Shown piece by piece: positions 5,101-31,965 of a stretch of DNA of 32,000 nucleotides. The notes beneath the pieces were generated by a model that was not told the origin of the DNA, did no database searches, and worked only from the letters and a program-made list of their open reading frames with translations. The position numbers and the translations under genes are program-made. This DNA comes from Mucisphaera calidilacus. GTDB lineage: Bacteria; Planctomycetota; Phycisphaerae; Phycisphaerales; Phycisphaeraceae. The stretch's first letter is position 1; the number at the start of each line of letters is the position of its first letter. The stretch lies in the NCBI RefSeq assembly GCF_007748075.1, contig NZ_CP036280.1, forward strand, positions 3,090,001 through 3,122,000. Reading direction: 5' to 3'.

Positions 5101-5120
5101 ACCTGAAAGGGGTTAGCCAC

Positions 5121-5717: not shown

Positions 5718-7300
5718 GACGCCAGCAACCGCATCAGCCCCAGCGGCCAGCTCGCCAACGCGTACACCGCCATCCCCACGCCAACCGCGCCCGCCACACG
5801 CACCAGCGCCGACGCCTCGGCCAGCCGCTGATCCAGCAGCCACACCACCACGCCCATCACAACACTCGCCACCACCACCCGCGTCGCCGTACCCGCCATC
5901 CCCAGACCGCCCCGCCGCCGAAGCACCAGCGCAAGCCCCAACGCCTGAACCACCGCCGCCGCCGCCGTCGACCACGCCAATCCCACCGCGCCCAGCGGCC
6001 AGATCAGCGTCAGATTCAGCACCAGGTTCAAAGGCACCGTCGCCGCCATCACACGGAGCGGCCACGTCGGACGGTCCAACGCATAACACGCCCGCGTCAA
6101 CACGTGCGTCAGCGAATAAGCCCACACCGCACTGCCGTACGCCAGCAGCAGCAACGCCACCCGCGCCGTCGCCGCACCATCAAACGCACCTCGCTCGTAG
6201 ATCAACGCCACCAGCGGCTCCGCCACCAGCGCCAGCCCCACACTCGCCGGCAGCGTCAGCCACAGACTCAAACCCAGACCCCGACGCAGCACGCCGCCAA
6301 ACGCCCGCGGATCCGACGCCGCCCGCGCCAACGCCGGGAACGCCGCCGTCGCCACCGCGATCCCGAACACACCCAGCGGGAACTGATACAGCCGCTGCGA
6401 CCACTGCAACGCCGCCACCGACCCCGTCTCGATCGGGTAAGCCACGCCACCAGGCAGCCACCCCACCGTCGTCACGCCCGCGTCAGGCGGCGAGAGCACG
6501 AACGCGATCACGTGATCCAACAACGCATTGACCTGAAACACCGCCAACCCCCCCGCCATCGGCAGCATCCGCCACGCCATCGAACCCACCTCCGGACCCG
6601 ACGCCGCCGACGGCCGCGCCACCAGCCCCCGACGCGATGACGCCACCACCATCCACAACAACTGCAACACACCCGCAACCAGCACGCTCAACGCCAACGC
6701 AAACGCAACACCTGAAGCACCGAACGACAACGCCCCCGCCAGCAACGCCGCCGAGATCATCGCCGCGTTCAACAGAATCGGTGCCGCCGCCGCCGGCGCA
6801 AACACACCACGCGCCTGCAACAACCCGCCCAGCATCGCCACCAGACACACCAGCGGCATGTAAGGCAGCATCCACGCCGCCAGACGCAACGCCTCCGAAG
6901 CCCGCGACGACGCCGCCACCCACGAACCCGCAATCAGCAACGCCACGACCCCCACCGCCGCGATCACCGCCGTCACGCCCGCCGTCCACGCCAGCACCGA
7001 ACCCGCAAAACCCGCCGCCCGCCGCGCATCCAGACCGTACAGCCGCGTGTACGCCGGGATGAACGCCGAGGTCAACGCACCCTCACCAAACAGCCTGCGA
7101 AACAGATTCGGCACCAGGAACGCCAGAAAAAAGATGTCCGCCCAGACCGACAGCCCCAGCGTCGCAGCCAGCACCGCGTCTCGCACCAGACCCGTAAAAC
7201 GCGACACCAGCGTCAGACCACTCACCACCACCGTCGCGCGACCGACACCCCCGCCGTCGTCGGCCCTGCACTCACTCGCCTTGTCGTCTGGTTCCGTCAT
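5702..7300 (-). CDS. murJ: MurJ/MviN-family (MOP superfamily) lipid-linked glycan flippase
   Basis: Signature LVSRFTGLVRDAVLAATLGLSVWADIFFLAFLVPNLFRRLFGEGALTSAFIPAY and about 14 TM segments. The ORF-track start at 7375 is GTG. The ATG at 7300 lies 2 nt after the VanZ-like stop (TGAACATG), so I take it as the start. Confidence 0.85.
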   Translation of the reverse strand: MTEPDDKASECRADDGGGVGRATVVVSGLTLVSRFTGLVRDAVLAATLGLSVWADIFFLAFLVPNLFRRLFGEGALTSAFIPAYTRLYGLDARRAAGFAGSVLAWTAGVTAVIAAVGVVALLIAGSWVAASSRASEALRLAAWMLPYMPLVCLVAMLGGLLQARGVFAPAAAAPILLNAAMISAALLAGALSFGASGVAFALALSVLVAGVLQLLWMVVASSRRGLVARPSAASGPEVGSMAWRMLPMAGGLAVFQVNALLDHVIAFVLSPPDAGVTTVGWLPGGVAYPIETGSVAALQWSQRLYQFPLGVFGIAVATAAFPALARAASDPRAFGGVLRRGLGLSLWLTLPASVGLALVAEPLVALIYERGAFDGAATARVALLLLAYGSAVWAYSLTHVLTRACYALDRPTWPLRVMAATVPLNLVLNLTLIWPLGAVGLAWSTAAAAVVQALGLALVLRRRGGLGMAGTATRVVVASVVMGVVVWLLDQRLAEASALVRVAGAVGVGMAVYALASWPLGLMRLLASQRTG

Positions 7301-16489: not shown

Positions 16490-16520
16490 AAAAAAAGGGC
16501 GAGCCCCGAAGGGCCCGCCC
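16490..16520 (-). terminator. Intrinsic terminator downstream of glnK
   Basis: The minus strand reads GGGCGGGCCC-TTCG-GGGCTCGCCC followed by TTTTTTT (plus-strand A-run 16490-16496). It lies 30 nt after the glnK stop. Confidence 0.7.
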
Positions 16521-16549
16521 GTCATCAGGAGGACAGCCTCACGTGCCCC

Positions 16550-16888
16550 TTACAGCGCATCGTTGTCCGACTCACCCGTGCGGATCCGCACGACCTTGTC
16601 CAGGGCGTAAACAAAAATCTTGCCGTCGCCCACATTCCCCGAACGCGACGACGAGGTGATCGCCTCGATCGCCTTGTCCACGTCCTCTTCCTTCACCGCC
16701 ACCTTCAGCATGACCTTGGGCACAAAACCCACGTCCATCCGACCGCCGCGGTAACGCTCGGTGTGACCCTTCTGCTTGCCAAACCCCTTGCACTCAAGGG
16801 CCGTGGCGCCATAAATCCCGAGCTCGGCTAGCTTCGACGTGATCACAGGCAGCGCCGAGGGCCTGATCACGGATTCGATCATTCGCAT
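16550..16888 (-). CDS. glnK: P-II nitrogen regulatory protein (amt-linked, GlnK-type)
   Basis: 112 aa. Same length and numbering as E. coli GlnB/GlnK: T-loop GFGKQKGHTERYRGGRMDVGF and C-terminus GDGKIFVYALDKVVRIRTGE. AGGAG lies 9 nt before the ATG. Confidence 0.95.
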   Translation of the reverse strand: MRMIESVIRPSALPVITSKLAELGIYGATALECKGFGKQKGHTERYRGGRMDVGFVPKVMLKVAVKEEDVDKAIEAITSSSRSGNVGDGKIFVYALDKVVRIRTGESDNDAL

Positions 16889-16990
16889 CGTTGTTATCTC
16901 CTAGTCTCTGCGGGAGGGGCCGTGGCCGCTCAACCCGCCATGTCTCATGGTTACAAACAACAGACTCCGCAGAGCCTGACGATCCGGGAA

Positions 16991-18535
16991 TCAGATCTCC
17001 CGGGCGTGGTAGCTCTTGATGTAGGTGAACTGGAAGTCCGGGTACGCCGACATGTCGTGCTCGCCGAGGTCCAGACCCTCGATCTCCTCAGCCTCCGAAA
17101 CACGGACACCAAAGATCGCGTTCAGAGCACCAAAGATCACCAGCGCCGCGAAGAAGGCGAAACCACAACCGGCAACCGTGCCGATCGCCTGCGTCACCAG
17201 CTGACCGCCGCCAGCCGTCTCGCCGGCAGCATCACCATAAATCGCCCCGGCGAACAGACCGTTGACACCCCACAGGCCGCAGCAGAGCGTGCCGTAGATG
17301 CCGCAGGTGCCGTGCACCGAGATCGCACCGACCGGGTCGTCGATCTTGAACTGGTCAAGAAGGACCACCGAGAAGTAAACCAGCACGCCGGAAATACCGC
17401 CGACGAGCACCAGAGCCTCGATCCAGTGAGGCGTGTCCGGACCGGCCGTAATGCCGACCAGACCCGCAAGAATGCCGTTGAGCGCCATCGTCAGGTCAGG
17501 CTTGCCGCCGACAACCCACGACACGATCGCGGCCGCCAGACCGCCACCACACGCAGCAAGCGTCGTCGTGACCAACACATACGAAACGCCCGCGGGATCA
17601 GCACTCAGCTCCGAACCACCGTTGAAGCCGAACCAGCCGAACCACAGAAGGAACACACCGATGGTCGCCAGCGGCATGCTGTGACCCGGGATCGGCTGAA
17701 CACTGCCATCCTTCGCGAACTTGCCCAGGCGGGGGCCCAGGATGATCGCACACGCCAGGGCACCCGCGCCACCCACGCCGTGCACCAGCGTCGAGCCAGC
17801 GAAGTCAGCAAAACCTAATTCGGCTAACCGGCCGCCGCCCCAGTGCCACGAGCCGACGATGCAGTAAATCACGCCCGCGAACGGGATACAGAAAATCAGG
17901 AAGGGCAGCAGCTTCACGCGACCCGCCACCGCACCCGAAACAATCGTGCAGCACGTCGCCGCAAACATCGCCTGGAAGAAGAAGTCCGTCCAGACCGTGT
18001 AACCCGGGTTGTAGTCCGGGCCGGTCGCCGCCTCGCCGAAGTAGTAACCGCCACCGCCACCGATGCCGGTGCCGAAGGCGAACACGCCCTCAACGATCCA
18101 CTCGCCCGGGTACATGATCGCCCAGCCGCACAACGCGTACATCACGATGCCGATCATCACGATCATCACGTTCTTGAACAGAATATTGACCGTGTTCTTC
18201 GCCCGCGTCAGACCCGACTCCACACACGCAAAACCCAGGTGCATGATGAACACGAGCATGCCCGCAATCATGATCCACAGGTTGTTCGCCTTGAAATCAG
18301 TCAGGTTGTAAAGCACCGACGCCGGATTCCCGTCGTCGTCCTCACCGACCGCGTAACTGTACTCCCCCTGCAACACCTCCGGGATCGCCTCATTCAGTGC
18401 GTCGACCTCAGCCTGCACCTCCTCGAGGGTCGGTACCGCCTCCGCGGCTTCCTGTGCGAATGCCCCCTGACTCATTACCACCAGTGCGGTAAGGGCCAGG
18501 AGCGGGATGAGCCATCCCCTGATGCGTTCCAACAT
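16991..18535 (-). CDS. amtB: Ammonium transporter (Amt family) with signal peptide and an acidic N-terminal extension
   Basis: Amt signature DFAGSTLVHGVGGAGALACAIILGPRLGKF and 11 TM pattern. N-terminal signal LIPLLALTALVVMSQGAFAQE. AAGGAG lies 7 nt before the ATG at 18535. Confidence 0.95.
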   Translation of the reverse strand: MLERIRGWLIPLLALTALVVMSQGAFAQEAAEAVPTLEEVQAEVDALNEAIPEVLQGEYSYAVGEDDDGNPASVLYNLTDFKANNLWIMIAGMLVFIMHLGFACVESGLTRAKNTVNILFKNVMIVMIGIVMYALCGWAIMYPGEWIVEGVFAFGTGIGGGGGYYFGEAATGPDYNPGYTVWTDFFFQAMFAATCCTIVSGAVAGRVKLLPFLIFCIPFAGVIYCIVGSWHWGGGRLAELGFADFAGSTLVHGVGGAGALACAIILGPRLGKFAKDGSVQPIPGHSMPLATIGVFLLWFGWFGFNGGSELSADPAGVSYVLVTTTLAACGGGLAAAIVSWVVGGKPDLTMALNGILAGLVGITAGPDTPHWIEALVLVGGISGVLVYFSVVLLDQFKIDDPVGAISVHGTCGIYGTLCCGLWGVNGLFAGAIYGDAAGETAGGGQLVTQAIGTVAGCGFAFFAALVIFGALNAIFGVRVSEAEEIEGLDLGEHDMSAYPDFQFTYIKSYHAREI

Positions 18536-18604
18536 GCGAACTCTCCTTTACGTGTTCGGACCTGTGAGATCACCACCCTGACGCAGGCGTGACTCGATTC
18601 GAGC

Positions 18605-18633
18605 AGAATAAAACGTTCATGCCTAGTTTGCAA
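18605..18633 (-). promoter_or_regulatory. Candidate sigma70-type promoter for amtB-glnK
   Basis: The minus strand reads TTGCAA-17 nt-TATTCT, about 70 nt upstream of the amtB ATG. The spacer contains one arm (TAGGCAT) of a 7-bp inverted repeat. By-eye prediction only. Confidence 0.3.
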
Positions 18634-18656
18634 GCGAGTGATTTCAAAAACGCTCA

Positions 18657-19073
18657 ATATTTAGGCATATTACATAAGACCCGTCTGATTCTTATGCGTT
18701 TGCCCCGGACGCCTCGACCGTGGTGAAAAAAAGCGGACACCCTACGAGGGTGCCCGCTCATCGCCCCCCAAGACCGTCTCGGGGGTGGCCTGCGTCCTGA
18801 ATTTGTGCCCGGTGCCCGCCATCCCTTGGCGGCTCCGGGTGTCGCTGGCTTCGTGCCGCCGACGCCACACATAGTGCAACACCCGGACCACAACGTCCCA
18901 GAACCCGAAATTAAAACCTCAGACACCCTTTAATCATCTCCATTCTCCTGACATACAAACACTTACATCCCTCCATATTTTCGCGCACTTTCTCGCTCAT
19001 CACCCACACCCCCTCCAGACCACACCCAGAACTGCGCGCTCAATAGTCATTCTCTGAGGCATTGCCTAAATAT
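18657..19073. repeat. 11-bp perfect inverted-repeat pair, ATATTTAGGCA (18657-18667) and TGCCTAAATAT (19063-19073), bracketing 417 bp
   Basis: Read directly from the sequence. The related half-sites ATGCCTA (18619-18625) and AGGCAT (19057-19062) lie next to the arms. Confidence 0.9.
18726..18757 (-). terminator. Intrinsic terminator of an unannotated minus-strand transcript upstream of the amtB promoter
   Basis: The minus strand reads GCGGGCACCCT-CGT-AGGGTGTCCGC (11-bp stem, one A.C mismatch) followed immediately by TTTTTTT (plus-strand A-run 18726-18732). No CDS ends nearby. Confidence 0.7.
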
Positions 19074-19201
19074 CAGACGAACCCGACCCGCGAAAATCAA
19101 CCCGCATCCCGACCTTCCGCGTGCGAAACCATACAGTTCAGGTCACAATGTCCCCTGAACAAACCCCCTCCTGTGTCAGACCATCGAATCGAGGTGTGCA
19201 C

Positions 19202-21931
19202 GTGATTCATCATGCCGTTCTTCGGGGCTGTGCCGCAGCACTCGCCATCCTCACCCTCAACCTCAACGTCTACGCCCAGGCCAGCGAACAGCCCGCCGCC
19301 GTCCGACTCGACTGGCAGGCACTCCTGCTCGACCCACGCGTCGCCCAGCCGCAGGTCAGTGACCCCGTCTGGCAACTCAACCCCCGCCCAGGCCGCAAAC
19401 AGATGATGATCCCCTTCGTCATCCGCCCTGAAGCCAACATCATCGAACTCCGCGCCCCCGCACTCGCCATCCGGGGCGCCCAGTTCCAGGCATGGTTCAT
19501 CCCCGCACCCACCGACAACCCCGACCAGAACCAGTCCCACGCCCCAACAAACGGCTGGGGCCACAAACAAACCCCACCGGGCATGGACCCCGCAGGCGGC
19601 TTCCAACCCGGACCCAGCAACCCAGGCATGAACCCAGGCATGGGCCTCGGCAGATCCAACCCCGCCAACGACGCACCCCAGCACCCGCGACTCACACGCG
19701 CCATCAACGTCACGCCCCAAGGCGAGGTCCAGTGGTCACTCGACCGCGTCATCAACGGCGCACAACGCGCCGGACAGAACAGCCCCTACGCCCTCAAGAT
19801 GGACCCCGCCGCACTCCGCGAACAACGACCCGCACCCCCCAGCCGCAGCCGAAACGCCGACCGCGAGGCCCAGCGGCGCGAGATGGCCGACTACCGCGAA
19901 AAACTCAACGCCTTCAACCAGATGCAGAAAAGCCTCCGCGCCCTGCCCGATGACTTTACCGCCAAACCCACACAGGTCTGGGGCGTCTACAGCCTCATGG
20001 ACCGCGAAGACCAGCTCGAAATCACCGGACTCGAAACAGGCGACTGGACCATCACCCTCGCCCAACTCGACGCACTCCGAGCCTGGGCACAGAGCACCGA
20101 TGGCGTCGCCGGCGTCGACCCCAACGTCGTCCGCCAACTCCTCACCTCACCCCACCCCCTCAACACACGACTCATCGCACTCGCCGCAGCCCGAAGCGGC
20201 GTCCTCAACACCCTCGAAACCGCCGACCCCGCCGTCGTCATCGGCATCGCTCCCCTGCTCACCGTCCCCGACCAGCCCACACGCGAGGTCATGGTCCGAG
20301 CCATCGCCCAGGGCGAAACCATCGGACCACGCTCCGTCTCCCTCCTCGAACGCGCCGTCAACGACCGCTCACCCGCCATACGACTCGCCGCCGTCACCGG
20401 TCTCATGCGAGGCGACCCGACCGACGAACGACTCCAGCCCATCCTCGACCAGATGCTCCGAAGCGGCGCCGTGCCCGCCGCCAACGTCCTCACCAGCGTC
20501 GCCGAACAGGCCGACGCCGTCCGCAACAACCGCCGCGAAGACCAGGCCGTCATCGACGGCTGGATGAGACTCGTCCAGACCATGCCCGTCAGCGAAGCCG
20601 CCGCTCGCGAAGCCGACGTCGTCCCCGCCATCGTCAACAACAGCACCACCAGCACCACCATGCTCGACTGGCTCGACACCGTCCTCCTCACCGCCGACGA
20701 CCCCAAACTCGTCCTAAGCACCCTCGACACACTCGCTGCCTGGCCGCAGGACGAAGAATCCCCGCGCCTCGAACTCGACCGACCCGACCACCCCTTCATC
20801 GCTCAGCTCCAGGGCCCGCAGGCCGACCGCGCCTGGCCCGCCCTCACCGCCTACGTCCCCGCCGGCTCGCAACGCAGCGCCCGCAACCGGCAGTACGACA
20901 ACTACCCAGGCGACGACATGATGGGCATGGGACCCACAGGCATGGGCGGCCCGCCACCCAAAGCCTCCGCACGCGACAACGCCGACGCCGAGGAACAGGA
21001 ACTCAACGCCTTCGAAACCCTCATCAAGGCCGCGACCGACCTCGATCCCGCCCCCGAACAGGCGCTCGCCTTCGTCCTCCGCTCCGACAACCGCGACCAA
21101 CGCGCCCAGGGCCTCCTCCTCCTCGCAGGTCGCGGCAAGGGACCCGTCGCACAGCAGGCCGGCACCCTCCTCTTCCGCGAAGGCACCGCCGCCACCGCAC
21201 TCAAGGCCTTCGCCGACAACGAAGAACAACTCATCACAGGCCTCTACACCTCCCAGAACCAGCAGCCGCCCAAACTCCTGCCCCTCATCCACGTCGGACG
21301 AGGCGAAGCCCTCCAGTGGCTCGGCGAAAACCTCAACCGCGGCAACCTCCCCGACGACAACGCCTGGCTCGACGTCATCACCTCCGAACGCGACCTCGTC
21401 GCCGCCGGCGCCGACGAACGCGACTCCGTCGCCCGCGCCGCATGGACCGTCCTCGCCATCCGCTCAGGCGGCGACGCTCAACTCGGCGAACGACTCTTCA
21501 ACGAAGCACGCAGCGAGAACGTCAGCGACGCCCCCGCCGCGCAAGTCTTCTGGGAAAAATGGACCAACACCATCAACGCACAACTCATCGGCCAGAAAAG
21601 CGGCCCCTACCGCCTCGAAATCCTCGTCACGCACAAGCACGGCGACCCACAGACCGCCAAACTCGGCATCGTCACCCTCGAGGAAAACAACGGCCAACTC
21701 AGCTTCGCCAACGACGCCCTCAGCGTCGAACCCGGCAGCAGCGCAAGCCGAATCGTCCTCACCAACCCCGCACAACTCAGCGGACTCCAGCCCGACGGCC
21801 CACGACTCCTCGCCGAAATCGACTGGGGACCCTCCGTCGACCTCAGCCATCAGGACGACGGCACCTGGTCCAACTTCGTCATCTTCGGCGACACCAAACT
21901 CAACATCACCCTGACACCCTTCAACGACTAG
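19202..21931 (+). CDS. Large secreted HEAT/ARM-like repeat protein of unknown function
   Basis: The ORF is open from 19121. The GTG at 19202, with GAGG 7 nt upstream, starts a typical signal peptide (VIHHAVLRGCAAALAILTLNLNVYAQA|SEQ). HEAT-like repeats, e.g. DRSPAIRLAAVTGLMRGDPTDERLQPILDQMLRSG. Two Met/Gly/Pro/Asn-rich low-complexity inserts. Confidence 0.8.
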   Translation: MIHHAVLRGCAAALAILTLNLNVYAQASEQPAAVRLDWQALLLDPRVAQPQVSDPVWQLNPRPGRKQMMIPFVIRPEANIIELRAPALAIRGAQFQAWFIPAPTDNPDQNQSHAPTNGWGHKQTPPGMDPAGGFQPGPSNPGMNPGMGLGRSNPANDAPQHPRLTRAINVTPQGEVQWSLDRVINGAQRAGQNSPYALKMDPAALREQRPAPPSRSRNADREAQRREMADYREKLNAFNQMQKSLRALPDDFTAKPTQVWGVYSLMDREDQLEITGLETGDWTITLAQLDALRAWAQSTDGVAGVDPNVVRQLLTSPHPLNTRLIALAAARSGVLNTLETADPAVVIGIAPLLTVPDQPTREVMVRAIAQGETIGPRSVSLLERAVNDRSPAIRLAAVTGLMRGDPTDERLQPILDQMLRSGAVPAANVLTSVAEQADAVRNNRREDQAVIDGWMRLVQTMPVSEAAAREADVVPAIVNNSTTSTTMLDWLDTVLLTADDPKLVLSTLDTLAAWPQDEESPRLELDRPDHPFIAQLQGPQADRAWPALTAYVPAGSQRSARNRQYDNYPGDDMMGMGPTGMGGPPPKASARDNADAEEQELNAFETLIKAATDLDPAPEQALAFVLRSDNRDQRAQGLLLLAGRGKGPVAQQAGTLLFREGTAATALKAFADNEEQLITGLYTSQNQQPPKLLPLIHVGRGEALQWLGENLNRGNLPDDNAWLDVITSERDLVAAGADERDSVARAAWTVLAIRSGGDAQLGERLFNEARSENVSDAPAAQVFWEKWTNTINAQLIGQKSGPYRLEILVTHKHGDPQTAKLGIVTLEENNGQLSFANDALSVEPGSSASRIVLTNPAQLSGLQPDGPRLLAEIDWGPSVDLSHQDDGTWSNFVIFGDTKLNITLTPFND

Positions 21932-23453
21932 CACCACCCGAATCACCCGCCGCCTCATCCGCCTGCTCCTCAGGCAGCTCGATCCGCCACGCCAACGCGT
22001 AATCCTGCAACTCAGGCTCGTACGTCAGCGGGAACGGACGACGCGTGATCTCCAGCCGGTACACGCCCGGCGGCAACGCGTGAATGTACAGGTGCTCCAC
22101 GTTGTCCAGACGCGAACGGCTCTCCGCAAACACCGTCGGCTCGGCAGCCACACCCCCCTCGTCCGGCAACGCCACCAGACGCATGTCCAGGTTCGACAAC
22201 AACGGCCGAGGCAGCCAGACCGGCTTCGGCGTGAACGGACGACCAATCACCTCTCCCTTGATCTGACGATTCCACACCAGCATCAACGACACCGGACCCA
22301 GCAACCGGTTCGCCTTGATCGTGATGCTCCGCGTCTCACCCGTCGCCAGCGACTCGAACGCCCACCCGTAACGACGTCGAATCCTCGGCAGCTCGTCATC
22401 CTCACCCGCACCCTCCAGCGACGGCAGCGCCAGACGCGGGTTCTGCATGATCTTCAACGCGTTGTCGATGTTCAGCGTCCCCGCACCAAAACGCTCCGCC
22501 AGCGGCCGCCCCGGCTGAGCACGCCAGTCCAGCGACTTGGTCGCACCCGCCATCAGCACCGCCTTGACCACCTCGCTCCGACCCCCCGCCTCACCATCCG
22601 CCTCCAGACGGTCCGCCGCCTCCAGCAACGACGCCGCTGCAGCAGCCACCGCGGGCGTCGCGAACGACGTCTGACCGCCCGGCGCCACCAGGTCCGGCTT
22701 GCAACGACCAATCCCGTCCACGGGCGTCCGCCCCCCCGAACTCCGGCCGTTCGTCGTCCCCACCGCGATCACGTTGTACGCCGACGCCAACGCCGGCGGA
22801 ATCTCCGAGTCCGGCCCGTTGTTCACGCCCACCGCCATCACCACGTCACGCGTGTCAATCTGATAATCCACGCGACGCAACACCTGCTCGATCCCACGCG
22901 TCTCCTGCGTGATCCACGAATGACTGAACACCCGGATCGGGTCGTCCTCCAGCGGCGGCTCATCCGTGCCCACACGCAGATACGCCTCGCCGATCCACGC
23001 CATGCTCGAAAAACAATGAACAATCCGGATCCCCGGAGCCAACCCGCCCCGACCATAAATCACACCCGCCGTCGCCGTCGCGTGATCAAAAGGCGTCGCA
23101 GGACCCGATCTCGGCACAAATCGAACGTAATCAAACACCGGCTTTCGACCGTCCGGCAGGTACTGCGTCGCCCCGCCCTCCACGTGACCCGCGATGATGT
23201 CACGGCCCACCGGAAGATCGCGACCCAGACGAAAACGAGCCTTGTCCAGCCCGATCGCCTGCACCGTCGTCGCTCGCGGACCCGCCGGACGAAGCGGCTC
23301 GCTCTCACCGCCCGCCCCCGGACCGGGCACCGGCCGAACACGATTGTCCACCCGGCCCTGCTGACCAAACACCGCACCCGGACCCCACGCCGCCATACCG
23401 ACCAGCACGAGCAGGACTAAACTGATGATCGCTGGCCGAGGAAGGCTGAACAT
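21921..23453 (-). CDS. Secreted subtilisin-like serine peptidase (S8 family) with a C-terminal beta-rich domain
   Basis: The ATG at 23453 starts the signal peptide MFSLPRPAIISLVLLVLVGMAAWGPGAVFG. His motif FDHATATAGVIYG, Asn in GVNNGP, Ser motif APGGQTSFATPAVAAAAASLL. The catalytic Asp motif is not clear by eye. Confidence 0.8.
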   Translation of the reverse strand: MFSLPRPAIISLVLLVLVGMAAWGPGAVFGQQGRVDNRVRPVPGPGAGGESEPLRPAGPRATTVQAIGLDKARFRLGRDLPVGRDIIAGHVEGGATQYLPDGRKPVFDYVRFVPRSGPATPFDHATATAGVIYGRGGLAPGIRIVHCFSSMAWIGEAYLRVGTDEPPLEDDPIRVFSHSWITQETRGIEQVLRRVDYQIDTRDVVMAVGVNNGPDSEIPPALASAYNVIAVGTTNGRSSGGRTPVDGIGRCKPDLVAPGGQTSFATPAVAAAAASLLEAADRLEADGEAGGRSEVVKAVLMAGATKSLDWRAQPGRPLAERFGAGTLNIDNALKIMQNPRLALPSLEGAGEDDELPRIRRRYGWAFESLATGETRSITIKANRLLGPVSLMLVWNRQIKGEVIGRPFTPKPVWLPRPLLSNLDMRLVALPDEGGVAAEPTVFAESRSRLDNVEHLYIHALPPGVYRLEITRRPFPLTYEPELQDYALAWRIELPEEQADEAAGDSGGASR

Positions 23454-23506
23454 GCCGACGATGCTATCGGGACGAAGTGCATCACACTTCGCACAGGAAC
23501 CCGCTG

Positions 23507-24664
23507 ATGGCAGAAAACGACTCTGACGACGCGACATTATCGGCTCCGCTACGCGTGCTCCACCTCACCGCGGGCTCCGACGCGGGCGGCATCAGCCGAT
23601 ACCTCCACGTCCTCTGCCAGGAACTCAAACAACGCGGACACCAGCCCGTCGTCGCCGGCGAGGTCGGCATCTGGCACGACCTCTTTACGAACGCAACCTT
23701 CCCCTGGATCGAAGCACCCCTCAAATCCGGGCCCATCGGGCTCTGGCGCGCCCGCGCAACCATCGCACGCGGACTCCGAAACGCCGGCTTCGACCAGCAG
23801 CCCCCCGTCGATATCATCCACGCCCACTACCGAAAGTCCTCGCTCGTCGGACGATGGCTCGCTCGACGATGGCGCATCCCCCTCGTCTACACACTCCACC
23901 TCACCGGCATCCCCCTCGACTGGGCCTCCAACCTCCTCAGCGACTGGGGCGACACCACCCACGTCCCCTCCTCCCAGGCACAGCAGTGGCTCATCGACGA
24001 GGCACAACTCGACCCCGAACGCATCCAACGCATACCCCACGGCATCCACGCCGAACGATTCCCCGAAGTCGACGACCAGAAACGCACCACAGCACGCGCC
24101 CTACGCGAACTCAATGACGCCTCACCCGTCGTCGCCTTCGTCAACCGCTTCGACACCCCCAAAAACGACGACTGGGTCATCGACCTCGCCGACCTCAGCC
24201 GCGACGTCGCCCCCAACGCCCTCTTCCTCATGCAGGGCGAAGGACCCCACGAACCCATCCTCCGACGCGAAATCGTCGACCGACGACTCCAGAACCGCGT
24301 ACGAATCCTGCCCTACGGCGACCCCGTCCCCACCTACCACGCCGCCGACCTCGTCATCATCCCCTCAGCACTCGAAGGCTTCTCCTACGTCACCACCGAG
24401 GCCATGTCCGCTGGATGCGCCGTCCTCCGAACACGGACCGCCGGCTGGGAAGAACACATCATCGAAGGCGTCAACGGACGATCCTGCCCCATCGACCGCG
24501 AAGCCTTCCTCGCCGCCGGTCTCGAACTGCTCCAACACCCCGAGCAGCTCCGCGACATGGGACACGCCGCCGCCGCTCACGTCCGCGAACACCTCACCAT
24601 CGACCGACAACTCTCCGCCACCGTCGAACTCTACCGAAAGGTCATCGCCCAACACCGCCACTGA
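23507..24664 (+). CDS. Glycosyltransferase family 4
   Basis: LRVLHLTAGSDAGGISRYLHVLCQELKQRGH N-terminus and VIIPSALEGFSYVTTEAMSAGCAVLRT C-terminal motif. Start is the ATG at 23507 or the GTG at 23477. Confidence 0.85.
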   Translation: MAENDSDDATLSAPLRVLHLTAGSDAGGISRYLHVLCQELKQRGHQPVVAGEVGIWHDLFTNATFPWIEAPLKSGPIGLWRARATIARGLRNAGFDQQPPVDIIHAHYRKSSLVGRWLARRWRIPLVYTLHLTGIPLDWASNLLSDWGDTTHVPSSQAQQWLIDEAQLDPERIQRIPHGIHAERFPEVDDQKRTTARALRELNDASPVVAFVNRFDTPKNDDWVIDLADLSRDVAPNALFLMQGEGPHEPILRREIVDRRLQNRVRILPYGDPVPTYHAADLVIIPSALEGFSYVTTEAMSAGCAVLRTRTAGWEEHIIEGVNGRSCPIDREAFLAAGLELLQHPEQLRDMGHAAAAHVREHLTIDRQLSATVELYRKVIAQHRH

Positions 24665-24719
24665 GAGATGAACTAAGTAAGATGGTCAGGTCAGGTGATT
24701 TGCAGCAGGAGCCAGACCC

Positions 24720-26096
24720 ATGCCGACCATGACCACCAAGCACACACGTTTCACGCTCTTGACCCTCGTGATAACACTCGCAGCCCTGCTGCCCGGACCG
24801 ACCGCGGCACAGGACACACCCCCCGACCTCCCCTTCCTCGCACTCGTCATCAACGAGCAGGCCGAACTCCGCGCCGGACCCGGAAAAGCCTACTACACCG
24901 TCGGACGCATCAACCGAAACGACGTCGTCGAAGTCCACGACGCCATGCTCGGCTGGTACAAAATCGCCGCGCCCGAAGGCGTCTACAGCTACATCTCCGT
25001 CATGCACGTCAAGGCCAGCGGTGACGGCACCATAGGCGTCGTCGATGACGACCGCGCCACCGTCAAGGCCGCCAGCGAAAAAGGACCCGGCTGGAGCTTC
25101 AAGTCGCAGGCCACCCTCACACGTGGCACCGAGGTCACCATCGTCGGCGAAGAAGGCAGCTTCTACCGCATCGTCCCGCCCGACGACGCCCGCGTCTTCG
25201 TCGAACGCGCCGCACTAAGACCCATCAGCGACGCCGAACTCGAAGCACTCCGACAAGCCGACGAACAACCCGTGCCCGTCATCACCCAACCCGAACCCCA
25301 GCCACAGCCCCAGCAGCAACCCCAGCCCGAACAGCAACAAGCACAACGCGGACCCCTCATCCCGCCACCCGCACCCGCCACCGACAACGAACAGCCCGAG
25401 CAAACCCCCGCCGAGCCCGCACCCGTCTCCGAACCCCAGGCCGTCGAGCAGTCCATGCCCGTCGAACCCGCCACCGAAGAAGAGTCCGCCTGGCCCGCCA
25501 TCGGTAAGGACACCGTCAGCGTCGCGACCGAGCCCCAGAGCAACACCCTCGAAGCCGTCGAGCAACGCAACCGACCCAACTTCGGCCTCCCCCTCGAAGA
25601 AATGCCCATCGACCAGATGCAGGCCGACTACGAAACCCTCCGCGACGACGACTCCCTCACCGCGCAGGACCAGCAGATCGTCGAGATCCGCCTCATCGCC
25701 ATCGACCGCAACCGCCAGCTCCGCGACCGACTCCGCGCCGAGCAGGAGGCACAGACCGCACAAACCCCCCAGATCGTCGTCGAAGAAACACCCGCCGAAG
25801 ACGCCGTACCCGTCGTCGACCGCTCCGAGAACGCCGCGCCCATCGAGGACTACGCCTTCGTCGGACGTCTCGTCCAGTCCTCTCTCTACGACGGACAGCA
25901 GGGACGACCCTCGCTCCTCCGACTCGTCGACCCCACCACCCGACGGACCCTTGGCTACATCGTCACGCGATCCATCAGCGACCGCCGTGCCATCTCCTCG
26001 CTCGTCGGGATCCTTGGCGAACGCACCCGCGACGAAGACCTCGGCATCATGATCATCGAACCCACACAGATCGACCTGCTCTCCGTCAGGCCCTGA
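24720..26096 (+). CDS. Secreted protein with two bacterial SH3 (SH3b) domains, an acidic P/Q/E-rich linker and a C-terminal domain of unknown function
   Basis: AGGAG lies 8 nt before the ATG. Signal peptide FTLLTLVITLAALLPGPTAAQ. SH3b-like AELRAGPGKAYYTVGRINRNDVVEVHDAMLGWYKIAAP and ATVKAASEKG...GTEVTIVGEEGSFYRIVPP. Linker QPEPQPQPQQQPQPEQQQAQ. Confidence 0.8.
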   Translation: MPTMTTKHTRFTLLTLVITLAALLPGPTAAQDTPPDLPFLALVINEQAELRAGPGKAYYTVGRINRNDVVEVHDAMLGWYKIAAPEGVYSYISVMHVKASGDGTIGVVDDDRATVKAASEKGPGWSFKSQATLTRGTEVTIVGEEGSFYRIVPPDDARVFVERAALRPISDAELEALRQADEQPVPVITQPEPQPQPQQQPQPEQQQAQRGPLIPPPAPATDNEQPEQTPAEPAPVSEPQAVEQSMPVEPATEEESAWPAIGKDTVSVATEPQSNTLEAVEQRNRPNFGLPLEEMPIDQMQADYETLRDDDSLTAQDQQIVEIRLIAIDRNRQLRDRLRAEQEAQTAQTPQIVVEETPAEDAVPVVDRSENAAPIEDYAFVGRLVQSSLYDGQQGRPSLLRLVDPTTRRTLGYIVTRSISDRRAISSLVGILGERTRDEDLGIMIIEPTQIDLLSVRP

Positions 26097-26284
26097 CGTC
26101 TGGTCAAGACAGGACGTTCGTTCCGATCCTGACAAACAAGCCGACCTCCACGGTTGATGCGCCCAGCAGCACCCGGCCCATCATTATCGAACATCCCTCT
26201 CCTCATACCGGTTATGGCCGGCACCCCGCTCGCCGATGCTCCGTCTGCAGCCCTCCGCTGCCGAAGTACCCACGGAGCCCCCCC

Positions 26285-26809
26285 ATGACCTCACCCCAAG
26301 ACCCCTCCGACGCCGGCCAGCCCAGACAAGGCATGCGCATCGGCGAAATCCTCCTCGAACGCGGGTTGCTCTCCGAGCAGCAGGTCTTCGAAATCACCCA
26401 GGCCCAGAAAAAACAGCCCCTGCCCTTCGGCGTCCTCGCCGAACGCATGTTCGACGTCACACTCGAAAGCATCGAGCAGGCATGGATCGAGCAGTACCAC
26501 CGCTTCACCGGAACACTCGACCTCAGCACCGTCAGCTTCGACACCGAAGCCCTCAAGCTCATCAACCGACGACAGGCATGGCAGTTCGAGATCCTCCCCG
26601 TTCGCTTCGAGGCCGACGGACAACTCCTCATCGCCGCCTCGCGGAGCCGACTCGCACGCGCCGTCACCTTCGCCGCACGACGCATCGACCAGGAAGTCTT
26701 CCTACGCATCTCCGAGTCCGACCAGCTCCGCGCCTTCCTCAGACAGCACTTCCCCATGCCCGAGGTCAGCGAAGAGCTTCTGGAACAGGCTCGCCGACTG
26801 GCCGGTTGA
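26285..26809 (+). CDS. Stand-alone T2SSE_N / MshEN-like domain protein (candidate c-di-GMP receptor)
   Basis: 174 aa. RIGEILLERGLLSEQQVFEITQAQ fits the 24-residue MshEN motif. A 5-aa spacer (KKQPL) and a degenerate second copy follow. The C-terminal half resembles the GspE N1 domain (ILPVRFEADGQLLIAASRS). There is no ATPase domain. Confidence 0.75.
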   Translation: MTSPQDPSDAGQPRQGMRIGEILLERGLLSEQQVFEITQAQKKQPLPFGVLAERMFDVTLESIEQAWIEQYHRFTGTLDLSTVSFDTEALKLINRRQAWQFEILPVRFEADGQLLIAASRSRLARAVTFAARRIDQEVFLRISESDQLRAFLRQHFPMPEVSEELLEQARRLAG

Positions 26810-28037
26810 CCGGCTCCCGGAACGTCACCAGCAACAACAACGCGCTGCACAGCGTCAGGCAAACCCCAAGCAGAAACACACGCGCGTAATCCCCGCCGCT
26901 GATGCTCCCCGCGATCCACGGACCAAACGTCCGACCGATCCCGTACACCATCGGCGCAAACACACCCATCATCGACGTCCGGTCGCTTACCCCCGCCAGA
27001 CGATTCAGATAAACCGGGGCCACCACCACGATCAGCATGATCGCCGGGCCGTGAAACACCTGCGACAGAATCGCCGCCCAAACCTCCGGGACGCTGTAAA
27101 GCAGCAGCAGCCGCGCACACATCGCCAACGCACCAATCACCACGATCGCCTTCAGACCAATCCGCCTCTCGATCCACCCGTAATAGTGCGTGAACACGAT
27201 CTCAGGCAGAACGCCGAACGACGCGATCATCCCCACCCACCGCGCCTCCACACCCAGCTGCTGAAGATGCAGCGGATAGAACGTGAAATAACCCGACATC
27301 GACAACGAAAACAGCAGCATCGCCAGGCAATACCACCGCGCACCCGGCGACAGCAGCTTCTGCAACGCCGTCCACGTCGGGAACTTCGCCAACCCGCCCT
27401 CCTGACGCTCGTGACGAACACGCGGAACCGCCTGCAGGTTCACAAGCGTGACCACCGCCAGCACGATCCCGAAGTAAAGCGTCCGCGAAAGCGTCGCCCC
27501 CTCGCCCATCATCAGCACCGGGACGATCAGCGAAGGCATCACGAACCCATACGCACCCATCACACGAATGTGGTGAAACGGAACCTCCGCCACACCCGAA
27601 GCACGCTCGTGCTGGATCCGGAAGTGCAACGCATCACTCACCGTCATCGCAGGCGTCACGCAGATCGCCAGCAAACCCGTCGCCAACGCGGCCAGCAGAA
27701 ACGCGCTCGCACCCAGCAACAACACAAACGACAAACCGATCCCCAGGAAAATCCCCGCCAGAATCGTCCGCGGCTGAACATGAAGATCCGCCATCGCACC
27801 CAGCACCGGCGGCGACACGAAAATCGACACCCCGAACATCGCCATCATCATCCCGATCTGAGCGTCATTCAGACCGATATCCGACAGGATCAGCGGCAGG
27901 TAAGGCTGAACAATCCCGAAGATCGCAAATCCAAACAGATAGTGGCGCTGCAGCGGGCTCAAGGGATCGACAGTGTAGACGCCTTCACGCACCCGAGCGT
28001 CCGGATACAGGATTATCCGGCATCCGCGCTCCAGCAC
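26766..28037 (-). CDS. MFS transporter (MFS_1_like / HcaT-like)
   Basis: 12-TM pattern. N-terminus LQRHYLFGFAIFGIVQPYLPLILSDIGLNDAQIGMMMAMFGVSIFVSPPVLGAMADL. The start at 28037 is GTG and uncertain. Confidence 0.8.
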   Translation of the reverse strand: MLERGCRIILYPDARVREGVYTVDPLSPLQRHYLFGFAIFGIVQPYLPLILSDIGLNDAQIGMMMAMFGVSIFVSPPVLGAMADLHVQPRTILAGIFLGIGLSFVLLLGASAFLLAALATGLLAICVTPAMTVSDALHFRIQHERASGVAEVPFHHIRVMGAYGFVMPSLIVPVLMMGEGATLSRTLYFGIVLAVVTLVNLQAVPRVRHERQEGGLAKFPTWTALQKLLSPGARWYCLAMLLFSLSMSGYFTFYPLHLQQLGVEARWVGMIASFGVLPEIVFTHYYGWIERRIGLKAIVVIGALAMCARLLLLYSVPEVWAAILSQVFHGPAIMLIVVVAPVYLNRLAGVSDRTSMMGVFAPMVYGIGRTFGPWIAGSISGGDYARVFLLGVCLTLCSALLLLVTFREPVNRPVGEPVPEALR

Positions 28038-28193
28038 GCATAAGCGCCCGAGTTACTGGACCCCGCATTCCCGACTTGACCGTCATTTTTGCGCTCGTCG
28101 GCCTCAATCCACCCCCTCCGATTCCCGATGTTCTGGGTGTCGCCGGCGTATTTCCCCGGCGGCACGGAGTTACCCGGAGAAAGGCCGCCAACC

Positions 28194-28772
28194 ATGCCGA
28201 AACAAAAAGACATCCTCACCACGGGCGAAGTCGCCAAGATCTGCAACGTCGCCCCGCGAACCGTTAGCAAGTGGTTCGATTCGGGTCAGCTCAAGGGATA
28301 CCGCATCCCCGGCTCCAAAGACCGACGAATCCCCCTCACCGCGCTCATCAAGTTCATGAAACAGCACCAGATCCCGCTCGACGGACTCCAGTCCGGCAAG
28401 ACACGCGTCCTGCTCGTCGACGAAGTATCCGAAACCGTCGAAGTCCTCAAGAAAATGCTCGTCGAACAGGCCGGCTACGAGGTCGACCTCGCTCACTCCG
28501 GCTTCTCCGCAGGCGTCGAGTGCGAGAAGTTCCGACCCCACGTCATCCTCATCGACCTTCACCTGGGCGACGTCTCAGGCGAAGACGTCCTCAAACTCGT
28601 CCGCGAAAACCCCGACCTCCAGATGAGCAAGGTCATCGCCGTCAGCGGCAAGCTCACCGAAGGACAGGCCTCCGCGCTCACCACCGCCGGATTCGACGGC
28701 TTCCTCCGCAAACCGTTCCACGTCAAGCAGGTCATCGACATCGTCGAAGAGGCCACCGCGCTGGTCTACTAA
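28194..28772 (+). CDS. Response regulator with reversed architecture: N-terminal excisionase/MerR-type HTH (HTH_17-like) + C-terminal receiver domain
   Basis: The ATG at 28194 is preceded by GGAGAAAGG. HTH: LTTGEVAKICNVAPRTVSKWFDSGQLKGYRIPGSKDRRIP. REC: RVLLVDE, VILIDLHLGD (phospho-Asp), AVSGK, RKPF. Confidence 0.85.
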   Translation: MPKQKDILTTGEVAKICNVAPRTVSKWFDSGQLKGYRIPGSKDRRIPLTALIKFMKQHQIPLDGLQSGKTRVLLVDEVSETVEVLKKMLVEQAGYEVDLAHSGFSAGVECEKFRPHVILIDLHLGDVSGEDVLKLVRENPDLQMSKVIAVSGKLTEGQASALTTAGFDGFLRKPFHVKQVIDIVEEATALVY

Positions 28773-28803
28773 ACACCAGCCAACCCCATCCAAGAGAAGG
28801 GCG

Positions 28804-28837
28804 CAGGCCACCCGACACAGGGTGGCCTGTGTTGTTT
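28804..28837 (+). terminator. Intrinsic terminator of the response-regulator gene
   Basis: CAGGCCACCC-GACACA-GGGTGGCCTG is a perfect 10-bp stem, followed by TGTTGTTT. It lies 32 nt after the stop codon. Confidence 0.7.
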
Positions 28838-28885
28838 CACAACTCACCCCCCTCCCGCCCCCCGCTGCAAAAACACAGGCCACCC
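28804..28885. repeat. Three-copy 10-12-nt element (CAGGCCACCC / GGGTGGCCTGTG / CACAGGCCACCC) capable of mutually exclusive pairings
   Basis: Copies at 28804-28813, 28820-28831 (inverted) and 28874-28885. The middle copy is perfectly complementary to either outer copy. Confidence 0.85.
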
Positions 28886-28900
28886 CCCGAGCACAAAGCG

Positions 28901-29385
28901 TCAGTAAGGCTGGCCGCCCCGGTCGTGCCACCGCTGGAAGAGGTCGATGGCCCTGTCGGCCAGGCAGCCGCCCTCCACCATGACAGGGGATTGACCGAGC
29001 TGCTTGAGCTGGCTGTCGCTGACGGGCAGCTCGTTGAAGCCGAAGCGGGCCGCGTCGGCGATCGAAGCACCGAAGACGATGCGCCGTATGCGCGCCCAGT
29101 GGATGGCCGTAAAGCACATCGGGCACGGTTCGGTGGTGGAGTAGATGGTGGCGCTCTCGAGGTGGATCGTGTTCAGGTGCCCGCAGGCGTGCCGGATGGC
29201 GCAGACCTCGGCATGGGCGGTCGGGTCCGACTGGGCACGGACATGATTGTGGGTCGCGACAAGAACCTGATCATCGCGCTCAATCAGGGCACCGAAGGGC
29301 GATTGCCCGTGGTGGATGCCCTGTTCGCAGGCGTCAAGGGCCTGCTGCATCAGTTCGCAGTCGCGTGGCGAGAACGTCATGCGCT

Positions 29386-29389
<4 letters not shown>
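28901..29389 (-). CDS. CDA-fold zinc deaminase, GuaD-type (guanine/nucleobase deaminase-like; a TadA-like function is not excluded)
   Basis: DPTAHAEVCAIRHAC...TEPCPMCFTAIHWARIRRIVFGASIADAARFGFNE carries the HAE and PCxxC zinc motifs and a GuaD-like C-terminal part. The GTG at 29389 overlaps the parA stop (GTGA). An alternative ATG lies at 29380. Confidence 0.8.

Positions 29390-31965
<2,576 letters not shown>

Follow-up and report, generated by a model that had tools for sequence, protein, structure and literature searches.

A strand-composition break beside atpD in Mucisphaera calidilacus: probable junction of a recent inversion rather than a replication origin

Local reversals of GC skew are taken as evidence of past inversions of genes (Merrikh and Merrikh 2018, PMC6220195), and SkewIT treats skew as a flag for rearrangements or misassemblies (PMC7717575); inferring inversions on skew alone has drawn criticism (PMC9098844). 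In inversion-derived reversals, a segment runs opposite to its flanks after being reoriented relative to replication, leaving a relic that decays under the local mutation bias, and the break described here in Mucisphaera calidilacus appears to be of this kind. Unlike skew-only inversion calls, ours also draws on gene order in relatives and on relaxation still in progress, measured against orthologues.

Bacterial DnaA-dependent origins provide a second point of comparison. The break resembles an oriC of this type in its change of GC skew from negative to positive and in the ParA-family gene nearby; it differs from one in lacking the DnaA boxes, AT-rich unwinding element, dnaA/dnaN genes, parB, and mirrored skew that such an origin carries.

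In animal mitochondria, a G- and T-rich strand arises through C-to-T and A-to-G deamination while the DNA is single-stranded. Like the DNA to the left of the break, animal mitochondrial genomes have a G+T and a C+A strand, with a bias independent of gene orientation (reviewed in PMC3269012). The magnitudes are also similar (GC skew ~0.3, third-position GC and AT skews, hereafter GC3 and AT3, of ~0.55 and ~0.76). Unlike mitochondria, the present case is a 3.5-Mb bacterial chromosome: The likeness is one of mutational signature only, with no sign of an unusual replication mode.

The composition break and its left-hand flank

The window is the whole 32-kb stretch of DNA that was analysed, taken from the closed genome of M. 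calidilacus Pan265, an axenic strain without plasmid (CP036280, 63.9% GC; PMC8882080). Two proteins encoded in it, the ParA-like protein and the response regulator, match M. calidilacus proteins at 100% identity. In 1-kb windows along its + strand, GC skew lies between −0.13 and −0.38 over 1–29000, is +0.10 to +0.15 over 29001–31000, and is ~0 past 31 kb; AT skew over 1–29 kb is mostly +0.1 to +0.5. By maximum likelihood, the G/C series changes at 28889 (support interval 28876–28988; likelihood-ratio statistic 208), and third-position G versus C counts differ sharply between the genes of the two sides (chi-square 353, p ~1e-78). The polarity break that an earlier note, made from the letters of this DNA, had reported at 28773–28900 is therefore real. 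The seven hand counts offered in its support were exact on recount (7/7), and the chi-square value just given is that of a significant GC3 difference between genes left and right of 28.8 kb.

The note had placed the break inside the 128-bp spacer that separates the regulator and deaminase genes (Table 1). It is located there, but at the right edge rather than mid-spacer: The spacer itself (28773–28900) has a GC skew of −0.35 and keeps the left-hand pattern, so the break sits at the deaminase stop codon. The change point coincides with the edge of a block formed by the deaminase, ParA-like, and atpD genes. The genes flanking the spacer converge, as described before, with the regulator on the + strand and the deaminase on the − strand.

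Table 1. Coordinates of features at and around the composition break (window positions)
Feature	Position	Strand	Basis or remark
Domain of extreme strand asymmetry; 24 complete genes	1–28772		GC skew ~−0.3
Response regulator, HTH_17 + receiver domain, 192 aa; last left-domain gene	28194–28772	+	Pfam
Predicted intrinsic-terminator hairpin of the regulator gene + T-rich run	28804–28838	+	Conserved left half of spacer
Putative inversion-junction interval, including a C-run	28840–28900		L001/L095 homology lost; change point 28889
Nucleoside (CMP/dCMP-type) deaminase	28901–29389	−	Pfam PF00383; below TadA cut-off
Orphan ParA-like ATPase	29386–30321	−	Pfam AAA_31/CbiA
Divergent promoter region, ParA-like gene/atpD	30322–30522		Conserved blocks aligned with L001, L095, L097; 60% GC
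atpD, F1 ATP synthase beta subunit	30523–31965	+	NCBIfam TIGR01039, 784 bits vs. cut-off 463

The two sides of the break are not mirror images. Top-strand GC3/AT3 values are +0.30/+0.42 for the deaminase gene, +0.25/+0.47 for the ParA-like gene, and −0.15/−0.14 for atpD; to the right of the break only GC skew changes sign, and AT3 of the deaminase and ParA-like genes retains the left-hand sign. The net strand component of the three right-hand genes, derived from their per-gene skews, is ~+0.06 in GC3 and ~+0.15 in AT3 against −0.55 and +0.76 on the left, in agreement with the weaker right-hand amplitude that had been noticed by eye.

The left-hand domain combines a very strong skew with a balanced gene layout. 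Its complete genes, identified by frame analysis and Pfam, split into 12 on the + strand and 12 on the − strand, and their top-strand means (n = 24 genes) are −0.554 for GC3 (sd 0.17) and +0.756 for AT3. Genes on the + strand average −0.64 in GC3 and +0.70 in AT3, and genes on the − strand −0.47 and +0.81. The skew follows the DNA strand whatever the coding strand, with a C- and A-rich + strand; being independent of gene orientation, it leaves the − strand G- and T-rich whichever way genes are transcribed. Such a G- and T-rich strand is the classical leading-strand signature. Measured against the typical bacterial skew of ~2.5% given by SkewDB (PMC8941118), the asymmetry of the domain is unusual and far stronger, and it is because the background bias stands so far above that value that a 3-kb block becomes visible.

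Two further features of the domain were recorded. The genes for GlnK (P-II) and an ammonium transporter (16550–18535, both −) have GC3 of −0.20 and −0.02 with AT3 of +0.62 and +0.77; their near-absence of GC3 skew could reflect selection for C-ending codons under high expression, as in atpD, or an older, nearly relaxed change of orientation. The 585-bp intergenic region at 18536–19120, which separates the divergent ammonium transporter gene and a 936-aa gene, has the highest AT content in the window (28–38% GC in 40-mers).

Gene order in relatives and the junction interval

Gene order was compared with relatives that retain the regulator and its neighbours. In L001, a 3.25-Mb contig of Mucisphaera sp., the order is S8(−) GT4(+) SH3(+) MshEN(+) MFS(−) regulator(+) atpD(−) ParA(+) deaminase(+). 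The window carries the same left-hand genes as L001, followed by regulator(+) deaminase(−) ParA(−) atpD(+). L095, a 1.08-Mb contig of a metagenome-assembled genome, reads MFS(−), fasciclin, regulator(+), two hypothetical genes, atpD(−) ParA(+) deaminase(+) MshEN(−) SH3(−) GT4(−) S8(+). The three-gene block is thus reversed in the window relative to both relatives that show the junction, with the breakpoint at the very spacer that had been flagged, as an inversion junction would have it. Relatives of at most 84% identity were returned by a metagenome scan with atpD. Four distant relatives of the regulator (L098–L101) keep none of its neighbours; the inverted lineage was therefore judged on composition, not parsimony, which counts against the inversion reading.

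A fourth genome was also compared. L102, a Logan contig of a sister organism, from a sample shared with L097 and reached through the one match of the 936-aa gene at 19121 in a protein search, is colinear with the window over 19.1–28.8 kb and has an aminotransferase gene after the regulator. Nine genes are colinear between L102 1648–11266 and window 19121–28772, with opposite polarity at full strength: Skew is +0.3 in L102 versus −0.3 in the window, and GC3 in this stretch of L102 is +0.4 to +0.6. Colinearity with opposite polarity indicates that the whole stretch switched replication orientation between the two lineages.

The position at which homology ends could be followed through the regulator terminator. 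The regulator is 90–91% identical in L001 and L095 and 75–80% identical among the database relatives listed, and more than 5000 proteins match it at E <= 1e-50. Its predicted terminator forms a stem-loop at 28804–28829 (CAGGCCACCC, loop gacaca, GGGTGGCCTG) followed by the T-rich run. The same hairpin also lies 3′ of the regulator gene in L001, L095, and L102, and the L095 copy carries a compensatory base-pair change (CAGACCACCC/GGGTGGTCTG). The regulator 3′ end and the hairpin are alignable in all four genomes (window, L001, L095, and L102) to ~28838, with no similarity beyond. Similarity to relatives thus stops after the hairpin, which puts the junction within ~28840–28900, the same place as the change point.

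The right-hand neighbour of the regulator terminator is a different one in each of these four genomes, and the spot 3′ of the terminator is a recurrent rearrangement point. Within the spacer, 20 nt of the terminator 3′ half recur as a partial copy in inverted orientation (28820–28839 vs. 28866–28885, 90% complementary). A repeated, recombination-prone palindrome at the junction was considered and rejected: The hairpin motif occurs there at the regulator terminator, with the one inverted partial copy only. Elsewhere in the window the motif has three one-mismatch matches.

The block itself behaves as a unit, since it retains its conserved internal promoter region. The gene beside the break had been called parA. 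Membership of the ParA family is upheld by Pfam, but the protein is an orphan ATPase that scores 98 bits where NCBIfam ParA_partition requires 180; it has a Pro/Thr/Asp-rich N-terminal extension and is not accompanied by parB. The ParA-like stop codon overlaps or abuts the deaminase start in the window (28901–30321) and in L095 (10001–11418). A 26-nt gap lies between the ParA-like and deaminase genes in L097 (653–2142), and in L001 (9989–11502) their spacing depends on ORF calls.

An abrupt change of composition can also mark the edge of an island, and the earlier note had suggested that the break might border on horizontally acquired DNA. The right-hand genes do not look foreign, however: Their GC content (0.65–0.66) and third-position GC content (0.81–0.85) equal those of the left side, Mucisphaera relatives carry orthologues of all three (3/3) in that block, with 63–91% identity, and no tRNA, integrase, or direct repeat accompanies them. 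We regard an island edge as exceedingly improbable.

Third-position composition of the block

The three block genes were compared with their orthologues in L001, L095, and L097, in which block skews are at full strength and agree with the flanking DNA. For the ParA-like coding sequence, GC3 is −0.59, −0.73, and −0.59 in these three genomes, respectively, versus −0.24 in the window, and AT3 is +0.29, +0.55, and +0.45 versus −0.33. The deaminase coding sequence follows suit, with GC3 of −0.59, −0.70, and −0.72 versus −0.29 and AT3 of +0.42, +0.62, and +0.64 versus −0.42. For atpD, GC3 is −0.01, +0.20, and +0.04 versus −0.14, and AT3 is −0.68, −0.79, and −0.71 versus −0.14. Relative to the orthologues, all six third-position skews (6/6) are shifted toward the polarity of the left-hand domain in the window, and for two of the genes, ParA-like and deaminase, the sign of AT3 is by now reversed. 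Progress toward the left-domain equilibria is ~29–35% for GC3 in all three genes, a similarity expected from one event; for AT3 it is ~70% in the ParA-like gene, ~70% in the deaminase gene, and ~40% in atpD.

Individual substitutions show the same direction. At four-fold sites in conserved codon families, with the majority base among the relatives as starting state and that of M. calidilacus as end state, the ParA-like gene has 26 C>G and 14 C>T changes versus 4 G>C and 0 T>C (40 vs. 4), and the deaminase gene shows the same direction (18 vs. 1). Changes in atpD, which is encoded on the other strand, run the opposite way (10 G>C vs. 3 C>G). First- and second-position skews of the ParA-like gene are +0.09 and −0.31 in the window and +0.11 to +0.14 and −0.26 to −0.43 in the relatives; in orthologues of opposite polarity they are +0.20 to +0.36 and −0.15 to −0.20. 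First and second positions that stayed in place while the third moved fit a recent change.

Under an HKY-type model of relaxation from mirror-image composition, AT3 outpaces GC3 when transitions dominate. The same model yields an indicative time since the flip of ~0.2 substitutions per third-position site, a rough and model-dependent figure. A relaxation model in which transition rates were left free did not fit the stationary composition, and the HKY-type model was used instead.

These intermediate values also bear on whether the break might stem from the assembly, as a chimeric join (the artefact that had been suggested) or a mis-oriented segment. A 20-nt inverted repeat does lie at the junction. 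The assembly, however, is a closed genome of an axenic strain (PMC8882080), and both sides of the break are closest to Mucisphaera relatives. A flip introduced by the assembler would moreover leave a perfect mirror, with + strand GC3 of ~+0.6 and AT3 of ~−0.5, whereas +0.25 to +0.30 and +0.42 to +0.47 were measured. Intermediate and discordant GC3 and AT3 imply that many substitutions have accumulated in the present orientation, and an artefact is very improbable.

A polarity boundary of another kind, such as a recently displaced origin or a bidirectionally replicated zone in which the right-hand genes sit near an equilibrium of weak asymmetry, would account for their near-zero net strand component. 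It would also suit the 10-kb weak-skew zones that adjoin the same block in L001 and L095 and the clustering of skew changes near the atpD/ParA-like gene in several genomes. Against it, the inversion already explains the change without an added assumption; the ParA-like first and second positions keep the ancestral signature while the third positions have moved, which points to recent change; and the discordant GC3 and AT3 polarity of the ParA-like and deaminase genes was seen in no equilibrated domain examined. We consider a boundary of this kind rather unlikely. The sample counts against the inversion here: With three right-hand genes only, a zone of weak-asymmetry equilibrium and a block in transit are not fully separable.

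On balance, the block of atpD, the ParA-like gene, and the deaminase gene was probably inverted in recent evolutionary time; the break would be the left junction of that inversion, and the old skew would be decaying. An inversion or rearrangement breakpoint had been listed among the alternatives in the earlier note, and it is supported by synteny together with the nonequilibrium composition of the right-hand genes: The block skew is opposite to the flank and out of equilibrium, as in a relic. Before the flip, the block would have shared the polarity of its neighbours, with a C- and A-rich + strand; the flip would have set the mirror-image composition onto that strand. The mutation pressure that shaped the left 28.8 kb, which would render the − strand G- and T-rich, may then have eroded the mirror image. 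C-to-T and A-to-G deamination on exposed single-stranded DNA is the textbook source of a G+T-rich strand. With AT3 reversed and GC3 about one third relaxed, the change of sign in GC skew would be a decaying relic and not a site of diverging forks. If the G-rich strand is the leading strand, as is the usual rule, forks would cross the visible region leftwards from an origin to the right of the window. A point against the inversion is that it is seen from its left junction only; the second is expected just beyond atpD, outside the window, which ends 35 bases past the atpD stop codon.

Origins, replication landmarks, and the wider family

A replication origin in the spacer, or no more than a few hundred bases away, from which forks diverge, would share several features with the locus. 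The polarity change runs from negative to positive, the local minimum of cumulative GC skew within the 32-kb window is at 28979, a ParA-family gene lies 0.5 kb off, and two Phycisphaerae contigs (L003 and L022) switch from negative to positive within ~0–3 kb of atpD. The direction of the change is the reverse of that at a terminus, where the + strand would pass from positive to negative.

The hallmarks of an origin were sought and are missing from the vicinity of the break. No TTATCCACA-like DnaA box (<=1 mismatch) lies within 9 kb of it, and none was found in 30322–30522. The two in the window, at 5113 and 18271, compare with 1.7 expected by chance, the canonical box being assumed for Planctomycetota; when one or two mismatches were allowed, box counts in the window, L001, L003, and L095 stayed at chance level, without enrichment. 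No AT-rich element is present at the break, where the spacer is 65% GC and taken up by the terminator hairpin and 30322–30522 is 60% GC; the AT-richest 40-mers of the window are at 18.6–19.1 kb and in its last 40 bases. The absence of a DnaA-box cluster and of an AT-rich unwinding element, stated earlier from inspection, agrees with these scans. Neither dnaA, dnaN, nor a parAB partition operon was found among 18 ORFs scanned with Pfam from 9474 to 31965; parB is likewise absent from them, and the ParA-like protein falls under the partition-ParA cut-off. Rfam and tRNA scans returned no match.

Composition argues in the same direction. The right side is not the mirror of the left: Its net strand component, ~+0.06 in GC3 and ~+0.15 in AT3, stands against expected values of +0.55 and −0.75. 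An origin at the break would spare the ancestral polarity of the block, so that the ParA-like skews would equal those of the relatives and the atpD coding strand would be G- and T-rich; neither is seen, and all three genes (3/3) have moved away. The suggested origin-type polarity change beside parA thus finds neither an oriC hallmark nor a mirrored right-hand side, and an origin here is improbable.

Taken by itself, the break is evolutionarily commonplace, and annotation as an origin would be a mistake; in genomes of this kind, local changes of skew sign will produce false-positive origin predictions. The lineage bias is strong enough for the unaided eye to pick out a 3-kb inversion, and the extent to which AT3 and GC3 have relaxed gives its age. 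Mucisphaera and related Phycisphaeraceae therefore offer a natural system for studying how fast composition re-equilibrates after reorientation relative to replication, for dating inversions, and for seeking the cause of mitochondrial-scale asymmetry in a free-living bacterium.

The more interesting by-product of the analysis is the extreme, mitochondrion-like strand asymmetry of the lineage. Orientation-independent asymmetry of this strength was observed in the window (1–28772), in L095 (10000–20942), across the whole L003 locus, and in L019, L022, and L102. In these strongly skewed Phycisphaeraceae, whole-sequence GC skew is 0.25–0.5, GC3 reaches 0.84, AT3 is ~0.75, and G couples with T on one strand. 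Near-zero skew characterizes other members (L002, L004, L005, L007, L008, and L098–L101). A search of the literature for skew of this kind in Phycisphaerae found no description.

Skew steps and switches near the same genes in relatives count against the inversion reading, in that something beyond a single inversion may be at work at the locus. Its restlessness across the family may reflect frequent inversions under a very strong bias or the proximity of the block to a replication landmark, the second being a doubtful option. A fuller version of the latter places the atpD/ParA-like block at a Phycisphaeraceae replication landmark (either a non-canonical origin devoid of DnaA boxes, or an origin or terminus that is mobile), with the break as its edge and the landmark driving repeated inversions. 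We hold this version to be unlikely; if it were true, the mitochondrion-like asymmetry (GC3 skew 0.5–0.8) would point to an unusual replication or repair regime.

Hints in this direction are the four right-hand neighbours that the regulator has in four genomes, the skew steps at the block in L001 and L095, and the switches in ZRK32 and L022. In ZRK32 (CP066225, around position 2.96 Mb; L003 5310–6730), a 1.4-kb AT-rich region without ORFs, one small gene past the atpD 3′ end, lies at a sharp switch from −0.45 to +0.45 and is a candidate non-canonical origin. Four copies of GCGCAC(A/G)AA occur at 6335–6599. The ZRK32 locus has no DnaA boxes and no Rfam match, and the GCGCACAAA motif shows no enrichment in the region over the locus. 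In L022 (9500–12000), skew passes from ~−0.3 to +0.3 at the atpD 3′ end, where there is no large intergenic region. In L001 and L095 (1–10000 in each), the zone on the atpD side has a weak skew that fades with distance, with AT3 often still strong; GC3 goes from −0.46 to ~0 over 6–10 kb. The other side, from the ParA-like gene onwards, is at full strength. Within the strongly skewed domain of L095, GC drops to 0.48–0.56 and skew is much reduced at 16500–18000 and 19000–19500; genes for HTH_31 and AadA_C proteins lie in these patches, whose acquisition was probably recent.
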